From assembly GCF_003334335.1 (NCBI RefSeq), contig NZ_QOWQ01000234.1: a stretch of DNA of 227 nt, one strand, 5' to 3'. The DNA is from Escherichia coli (lineage in GTDB: Bacteria > Pseudomonadota > Gammaproteobacteria > Enterobacterales > Enterobacteriaceae). Of the stretch, positions 1 through 227 are shown piece by piece. The position numbers and the translations under genes were made by a program. How positions within the stretch are numbered: the first letter of the stretch is position 1; every line of letters starts with the position of its first letter. A model generated the notes under the pieces. That model saw only the letters and a list, made by a program, of their open reading frames with translations, was not told where the DNA came from and did no database searches.

Positions 1-5
1 CAAAT

Positions 6-34
6 GCCTGATGCGCTACGCTTATCAGGCCTAC
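6..34 (+). repeat. REP / palindromic unit, Z2-like, copy 1
   Basis: gcctgatgcgctacgcttatcaggcctac. Imperfect palindrome with arms 6-16 and 20-30 (9 Watson-Crick pairs, one G-T, one mismatch) and a 3' CTAC tetranucleotide, matching the REP consensus pattern GCC(G/T)GATGCG...CTTATC(C/A)GGCCTAC. Confidence 0.85.
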
Positions 35-51
35 AGATTCTTGCGCCATTC

Positions 52-85
52 GTAGGCCGGATAAGGCGTTCACGCCGCATCCGGC
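52..85 (-). repeat. REP / palindromic unit, Y-like, copy 1, inverted relative to the Z2-like unit
   Basis: Reverse complement of 52-85 is gccggatgcggcgtgaacgccttatccggcctac, which matches the classic E. coli REP consensus as I recall it. Arms gccggatgcggcg and cgccttatccggc flank a tgaa loop; GTAG lies at 52-55 on the + strand. Confidence 0.88.
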
Positions 86-98
86 AATGGTGACAAAT

Positions 99-127
99 GC
101 CTGATGCGCTACGCTTATCAGGCCTAC
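99..127 (+). repeat. REP / palindromic unit, Z2-like, copy 2
   Basis: Identical to 6-34, offset by 93 bp. Confidence 0.85.
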
Positions 128-144
128 AGATTCTTGCGCCATTC

Positions 145-178
145 GTAGGCCGGATAAGGCGTTCACGCCGCATCCGGC
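145..178 (-). repeat. REP / palindromic unit, Y-like, copy 2
   Basis: Identical to 52-85, offset by 93 bp. Confidence 0.88.
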
Positions 179-191
179 AATGGTGACAAAT

Positions 192-220
192 GCCTGATGC
201 GCTACGCTTATCAGGCCTAC
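192..220 (+). repeat. REP / palindromic unit, Z2-like, copy 3 (unit truncated by the window end after 227)
   Basis: Identical to 6-34, offset by 186 bp; followed by the first 7 nt of the 17-bp linker. Confidence 0.85.
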
Positions 221-227
221 AGATTCT

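Follow-up and report, generated by a model that had tools for sequence, protein, structure and literature searches.

The question raised by this locus is whether the convergent CTAC and GTAG tetranucleotides of the window (the whole stretch of 227 nt that was analysed) are the REP motif recognised by REP-associated tyrosine transposases (RAYT, TnpA-REP), as had been claimed in the original prediction. By direct reading, CTAC was located at 31-34, 124-127 and 217-220. GTAG stands at 52-55 and 145-148, and a linker of 17 nt lies within each pair. The accompanying statement that the tetranucleotides flank each linker held for the 17-nt linkers and failed for the 13-nt linkers (86-98 and 179-191), which join the opposite ends of the hairpins. 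The window is made up of 2.44 exact copies of a 93-bp unit, and in each unit a z1 REP and a y REP are placed in opposite orientations, GTAG-end to GTAG-end across the 17-nt linker. The features, in window positions, are as follows.

1-5, no strand: 3' end of the 13-nt linker AATGGTGACAAAT, joining the non-GTAG ends of y and z1; register taken from the N921 array (L001 4001-4227)
6-34, minus strand: z1 REP, 29 nt, with the REP sequence GTAGGCCTGATAAGCGTAGCGCATCAGGC on the minus strand; the inverted REP (iREP) ends in CTAC (31-34) on the plus strand
35-51, no strand: 17-nt linker AGATTCTTGCGCCATTC between two GTAG ends, by direct reading
52-85, plus strand: y REP GTAGGCCGGATAAGGCGTTCACGCCGCATCCGGC with 5' GTAG at 52-55, assigned from its fold, contacted bases and REPIN seed
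86-98, no strand: 13-nt linker AATGGTGACAAAT between non-GTAG ends, without flanking GTAG or CTAC
99-127, minus strand: second copy of the z1 REP, CTAC at 124-127, exact repeat of 6-34
128-144, no strand: second copy of the 17-nt linker, exact repeat
145-178, plus strand: second copy of the y REP, GTAG at 145-148, exact repeat of 52-85; REPIN seed at 154-174 on the minus strand
179-191, no strand: second copy of the 13-nt linker, exact repeat
192-220, minus strand: third copy of the z1 REP, CTAC at 217-220, exact repeat
221-227, no strand: first 7 nt of the next 17-nt linker, by direct reading

In megablast searches of 5,426 complete E. coli genomes, a 100% full-length match to the window was found only in E. 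coli N921, where it lies in the intergenic gap between yahG and yahI and belongs to an array of 4.9 units. The sense of the yahG-yahI operon corresponds to the minus strand of the window. Repeats of the window type were matched in all genomes searched (5,426/5,426), at a median of at least 27 places per genome, and the sequence is therefore a dispersed repeat. High copy number, dispersal and an extragenic position, here between yahG and yahI, are the properties of REPs in general. Based on these results and those given below, it is very probable that the window comes from the yahG-yahI gap of E. coli, where it forms part of a REP/BIME tandem array, and that its GTAG heads are the RayT recognition element.

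Published REP lengths are 35 nt for y, 29 nt for z1 and 37 nt for z2, each type having GTAG in front and an AA-GC mismatch within (PMC8266576), and the cleavage motif TGCC↓TGAT (the arrow marks the cut) is found in z iREPs and not in y iREPs (PMC3333891). Because of these lengths and the distribution of TGCC↓TGAT, 6-34 was assigned to z1 and 52-85 to y, and the "Y/Z2" labels given earlier to the units have to be corrected. The y REP at 52-85 is an imperfect palindrome of about 35 nt with the A12A13/G26C27 mismatch, and GTAG stands directly 5' of the stem foot at both 52-55 and 145-148. Its fold as single-stranded DNA had an energy of -12.2 kcal/mol (z -4.4); the stem contained an AA/GC internal loop, and GTAG stayed outside the pairing at the 5' foot. 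The z1 REP at 6-34 has 29 nt, GCCTGAT...ATCAGGC arms and a short apical stem; its single-stranded fold reached -8.6 kcal/mol (z -3.9), again with GTAG unpaired and with an AA bulge. When it was aligned with the units flanking rayT (two copA-ybaQ unit sequences were left out of this alignment), the 7 apical nt of z2 were missing from it. The naming of the long z REPs beside rayT differs between publications; they are called z1 in the legend of Figure 1 of PMC3479197 and z2 by Ton-Hoang et al. (PMC3333891), and by their length (36-37 nt) they are z2.

As to the class of BIME, the window has one trait of BIME-2, i.e., tandem copies with short linkers whose number varies by strain (2.44 in the window, 4.9 in N921). 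It does not have the y plus z2 composition of that class, the z partner being 29 nt instead of 36-37 nt and the period 93 nt instead of 101 nt. A BIME-1, which is a single y-L-z1 element with a long linker and an IHF site, was also considered. This reading was rejected since the linker is 17 nt, the array is tandem and multicopy, and no match to the IHF consensus WATCAANNNNTTR was found in the window even with 1 mismatch. The combination of z1, short linkers and multiple copies is that of the "atypical BIME" or y-z1 mosaic (class per PMC3333891, PMC8266576).

The simplest alternative would be that GTAG and CTAC are chance 4-mers. On both strands of the window 8 GTAG sites were observed, against 1.08 ± 0.87 expected, and none of 200 shuffles reached 8; these 8 sites are not independent, since they lie in identical copies and amount to three sites per unit. 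That gives the chance reading some room, with only three independent sites per 93-bp unit against about 0.7 expected on both strands. Its probability is nevertheless negligible, because the shuffled sequences never reached the observed number and because GTAG is fixed at the stem foot in 26/29 independent REPs. The latter were obtained from 220 kb of unlinked K-12 DNA, in which REP stems were located by the core GCC[GT]GATAAG ... ATC[CA]GGC without using GTAG. This search returned 33 anchor hits, about 29 of them recognisable REPs, and GTAG exactly precedes 26 of the approximately 29 (18/21 once the yahG-yahI, or yahH, locus is excluded), GTAT preceding 2. The 4 nt past the other stem foot are variable among the same K-12 REPs. 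A third CTAC per unit (16-19, 109-112 and 202-205), which had not been listed earlier, lies inside the z1 loop. It was considered as part of the motif and rejected; the loops of z1 at other K-12 loci read GAA or GCA, and this CTAC is therefore incidental.

Conservation at the yahG-yahI locus was compared over 27 units from 8 strains. GTAG was invariant in all 54 REPs. The z1 REP had no variable column (0/29, with 27/27 copies invariant) and the y REP had 3/34, none of them within GTAG, while the two linkers together had 10/30 (7/17 in the 17-nt linker and 3/13 in the 13-nt linker). The difference between REP bodies and linkers (3/63 vs 10/30 variable columns) was significant (Fisher p=5e-4), and the 17-nt linker, with 9 variants, was the most variable segment of the unit among strains. 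GTAG is described as a conserved feature of REPs generally (PMC3333891).

A RAYT gene could not be seen in the window itself and had to be looked for in the source genome. N921, which carries the 100% match, also has rayT, intact and at a distance of 75 kb from the array:

L006 5969-6466, minus strand: rayT of N921, intact gene

The K-12 gene is annotated as b0228. The N921 RayT protein is identical at 165/165 positions to the crystallised TnpA-REP (PDB 4ER8) and scored 179 bits against the NCBIfam model REP_Tyr_transpos NF047646 (cut-off 80). Pfam was uninformative as an identifier, the match to Y1_Tnp being marginal (E=0.08), and the identity was settled by PDB and NCBIfam. In K-12 rayT is flanked by y-z2 upstream and by z2-17nt-y-14nt-z2-17nt-y downstream, and the flanks in N921 are the same. 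A RAYT in the same genome, itself flanked by REPs of the same family, is what a RAYT-associated REP of a group 2 REPtron system would have. The flanking y REPs show 1-2 mismatches to the y REP of the window and the CTAC-17nt-GTAG layout is shared; the z partner is z2 there and z1 here, and the flanking linkers, also of 17 nt, differ in sequence from that of the window. The gene in N921, its flanking REPs and the published assays thus support the central claim that CTAC/GTAG is the REP motif recognised by RAYT/TnpA-REP.

Binding by TnpA-REP is restricted to single-stranded DNA of the REP strand, which has the 5' GTAG and the bulged stem; the bulge is required, and with any mutation of GTAG the E. 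coli enzyme neither binds nor cleaves (PMC3333891, PMC8266576, PMC3479197). TnpA-REP is a monomer that is auto-inhibited and depends on Mn (PMC3479197). The DNA in the co-crystal is the y REP upstream of rayT, as oligo GTAGGACGGATAAGGCGTTTACGCCGCATCCG (PMC3479197), and the y REP of the window differs from this oligo only at positions 6 and 20, both of which are uncontacted (PMC3479197). All bases contacted by TnpA-REP are kept, i.e., G1 T2 A3 G4, T11, the A12A13/G26C27 mismatch and G32 (PMC3479197; PMC8266576). Cleavage takes place at C↓T sites, with the iREP consensus motifs TGCC↓TGAT and GGCC↓TAC(A/C/G), the latter within CTAC, and y, z1 and z2 iREPs were all cleaved in vitro (PMC3333891). 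Strand transfer by TnpA-REP can also assemble tandem BIMEs in vitro (PMC3333891, PMC8266576, PMC3479197). Three predicted cleavage motifs, all exact matches to the consensus, were identified in the window:

5-12, plus strand, cut between 8 and 9: TGCC↓TGAT of the z1 iREP
28-35, plus strand, cut between 31 and 32: GGCC↓TACA of the z1 iREP, inside CTAC
complement of 51-58, minus strand, cut between 55 and 54: GGCC↓TACG of the y iREP

Moreover, the 17-nt linker has a C↓T dinucleotide between 40 and 41 on the plus strand, and on the minus strand ...ATC↓T lies directly 5' of the z1 GTAG. On sequence grounds, the array is predicted to be a RayT binding and cleavage substrate; it fits the published rules exactly, and equivalent substrates have been assayed. 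In such a process, RayT would bind the folded single-stranded REP via GTAG and the mismatched lower stem and would then cut nearby C↓T sites, among them the CC↓TAC in the CTAC that belongs to the adjacent inverted REP, some 20 nt upstream. On the plus strand the y REP (52-85) would serve as the binding hairpin and the z1 iREP as the cleavable one; on the minus strand the z1 REP would be bound and the y iREP cut. The convergent CTAC/GTAG pair could thus represent a cleavage site facing a recognition site on each strand. From the oriC and ter positions of K-12, we take the lagging-strand template at yahG-yahI to be the minus strand of the window. The non-template strand of yahG-yahI is also the minus strand, from which we infer that z1 would be the more often exposed binding hairpin.

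Another possibility is that the tetranucleotides are no protein motif and that GTAG and CTAC pair with each other, extending the hairpin of a REP doublet into a REPIN- or naRNA4-like cruciform or RNA. Indeed, in the fold of 52-127, a single long hairpin, GTAG 52-55 is paired with CTAC 124-127 (-22.4 kcal/mol, z -5.3), and the Rfam model of naRNA4 (RF02564) matched 55-124 and 148-217 on the plus strand with 78 bits (gathering score 59.5). However, a structural pair should tolerate compensatory changes, and the sequence is fixed as GTAG; the motif is described as a general REP feature, and 84 of the 584 REPs of K-12 stand alone (PMC3333891); and the naRNA4 match begins only after GTAG, at position 55. 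The minus strand, which is the transcribed one in yahG-yahI, scored 53.9 bits and remained under the naRNA4 threshold of 59.5, and the role of naRNA4 in chromosome compaction is disputed. We therefore regard mutual pairing as a very unlikely explanation of the tetranucleotides. The match was also rejected as evidence of an sRNA gene, being antisense to the operon; the naRNA4 model amounts to a y-z REP doublet, and any such BIME would match it.

The same long fold, together with an exact copy of the 21-nt E. coli REPIN seed GATGCGGCGTGAACGCCTTAT at 61-81 and 154-174 on the minus strand (PMC8049555), gives the window the properties of a REPIN, i.e., inverted REPs forming one long hairpin and belonging to the dominant REP population. 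This seed defines the RAYT-associated REPIN population of E. coli (PMC8049555).

It could also be argued that YahH is a real protein encoded by the repeat and that the tetranucleotides are merely codons. Annotations do place an ORF across the array (as yahH or as a hypothetical protein; L001 3846-4235 and L004 5770-6090), and frame 1 of the minus strand is open across the whole window (1-227). However, the 93-nt period equals 31 codons, so that a stop-free frame stays open over all units and yields the 31-aa repeat RICRPDKRSASGICHHCRMRRERLIRPTNGA. The length of the ORF tracks the number of units, 1-unit and REP-free alleles lack the ORF, and the sequence spanned by yahH is a dispersed REP found at tens of places per genome. 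A coding origin of the tetranucleotides is thus hardly credible, and the yahH ORF is almost certainly an annotation artefact, a by-product of the 31-codon repeat period.

A more serious alternative is that GTAG/CTAC is kept for host functions of REPs, such as gyrase binding, attenuation and mRNA stabilisation, and that RayT is irrelevant at this locus. The gene was detectable in 3,575/5,426 complete genomes, which leaves 34% without it, and genomes without a rayT match still have intact arrays of 1 or 3 units in which GTAG/CTAC is perfect. The array also lies between tandem genes, like REP325, a partly Rho-dependent attenuator that stabilises the upstream mRNA, and gyrase preferentially cleaves y REPs (PMC6379681). 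On the other hand, gyrase cuts at loops and non-complementary stem regions and not at GTAG (PMC6379681), and a hairpin acting as RNA would have no need of an unpaired 4-mer of fixed sequence beyond its stem, although no other feature is as invariant as GTAG. TnpA-REP, in contrast, contacts GTAG base-specifically, and any mutation in it kills the activity (PMC8266576, PMC3479197). Moreover, the absences of rayT within E. coli are secondary losses (PMC3333891), and the persistence of the arrays may reflect too little time for decay. Maintenance for host functions with RayT playing no part is accordingly unlikely, and recognition by RayT is preferred as the reading of the motif. By analogy with REP325, the hairpins would most probably have a further, local role in the yahG-yahI transcript, independent of RayT, as attenuator and mRNA stabiliser.

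The number of units between yahG and yahI varies among strains, and the following alleles were found:

REP-free, gap of 95 nt: FDAARGOS_1285
1 unit, gap of 142 or 152 nt: STEC17-190, S21EC
3 units, gap of 329 nt: O145:H28 RM13516
4 units, gap of 421 nt: K-12, 2013C-4991, EC-107
5 units, gap of 514 nt: N921, TB06052, O157:H7

The N921 array corresponds to the K-12 allele plus one exact extra copy of the last unit. In the REP-free allele of FDAARGOS_1285 (L013 401-495) the BIME and its immediate flanks are replaced by a different, single-copy segment of 58 nt, which contains a 10-bp hairpin (CCTTCTCCCC/GGGGAGAAGG) and is present at full length in 651/5,426 genomes. With this segment occupying the position, the allele was rejected as a clean empty site or target sequence. 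The 1-unit allele of S21EC (L015 401-552) has agagacaacgcgtactttgcagg instead of atgaacatgtagg in the 23 nt between the y REP and the yahG stop, which indicates that the yahG-side junction of the array varies as well. The 3-unit array of O145:H28 (L011) resembles, by its linker variants, units 1, 4 and 5 of the 5-unit array of O157:H7 (L014). This pattern implies an internal gain or loss of two units between related lineages, of which one carries rayT and the other lacks it.

The relation of rayT to array length was studied in a systematic sample of 54 chromosomes, using a repeat-free composite query of the yahG end, the yahI start and rayT. The numbers of chromosomes were:

5 units: 4 with rayT, 0 without a rayT match
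4 units: 15 with rayT, 0 without a rayT match
3 units: 0 with rayT, 3 without a rayT match
1 unit: 13 with rayT, 11 without a rayT match
REP-free: 4 with rayT, 4 without a rayT match

All arrays of at least 4 units (19/19) were in chromosomes with rayT, and no more than 3 units were found in any of the 18 genomes lacking a rayT match (Fisher p=5e-5). However, the long arrays were confined to a few clones (K-12-like and O157), and within one flank-identity class an identical 1-unit allele was found in strains with and without rayT; ancestry therefore confounds the association, which is only suggestive. That tandem amplification at yahG-yahI depends on RayT in nature is a tentative idea which we consider improbable at present. 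If it held after phylogenetic correction, it would provide population-level evidence for BIME amplification in vivo, which so far has been modelled from in vitro data.

The locus thus touches the long-standing question of whether RayT moves or amplifies REPs in living cells. Such action was not demonstrated in PMC3333891 or in bioRxiv 10.64898/2026.03.23.713779. A mobilome study saw no circular intermediates (bioRxiv 10.1101/2024.07.17.603846), and REP325 was stable on plasmids (bioRxiv 10.64898/2026.03.23.713779). Genomes containing a RAYT are reported to hold more REPINs, and a K-12 mutation-accumulation line lost 5/6 tandem REPINs at another locus (PMC8049555). RayT may act on the yahG-yahI array in cells and contribute to the gain and loss of whole 93-bp units between strains; such changes would arise just as readily by replication slippage, or by unequal recombination between the 93-bp direct repeats. 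With alleles of 0, 1, 3, 4 and 5 units in strains with and without rayT, yahG-yahI is a convenient natural test site. The present result matters mainly for annotation, in that the tetranucleotides are REP heads, the labels are corrected to z1 and y, and yahH is a by-product.

Compared with known systems, REPs resemble the IS200/IS605 elements (IS608, ISDra2) in having an imperfect hairpin of single-stranded DNA, a 4-nt element 5' of its foot, a Y1 HUH enzyme and cleavage nearby. In REPs, however, GTAG is gripped base-specifically by the protein and is not free to pair with the cleavage site, TnpA-REP is a monomer, and the REP lacks a transposase and is no autonomous IS. An IS200/IS605 element would have a Y1 gene between subterminal hairpins, whereas the N921 array consists of REPs and linkers only. 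With naRNA4/REP325 (RF02564) the window shares a y-z REP doublet between tandem genes and a plus strand above the gathering threshold; it differs in its locus and in the operon-sense strand being below the threshold, and the match here is one of REP homology. The REPIN-RAYT systems (Bertels and Rainey; RAREFAN) are alike in their inverted doublets that form a long hairpin, the exact seed and a single-copy, vertically inherited RAYT. The enterobacterial doublets are asymmetric (y vs z), and here there is local tandem amplification instead of dispersal as single elements.

The E. coli REPtron (rayT/yafM/TnpA-REP, PDB 4ER8, with its flanking BIMEs) has the y REP, the CTAC-17nt-GTAG layout, the contacted bases and the CC↓TAC sites in common with the window, but no transposase gene lies in or beside the window array, z1 takes the place of z2, and the linkers differ. 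With the REPs and BIMEs of E. coli as such, in the Bachellier/Gilson classification of y, z1 and z2 palindromic units followed by PMC3333891, the window shares the hairpin sequences, with their 5' GTAG and AA/GC bulge, the alternating orientation, the tandem arrangement, the extragenic position and the strain-variable number of units. In contrast to the canonical BIME-1 (y-L-z1, single, IHF site) and BIME-2 (y/z2, 101 nt), it combines y and z1 with short linkers in a 93-nt period. The tetranucleotides are textbook REP "heads", and everything seen in the window belongs to the well-described and already known REP/BIME and RayT system of E. coli.
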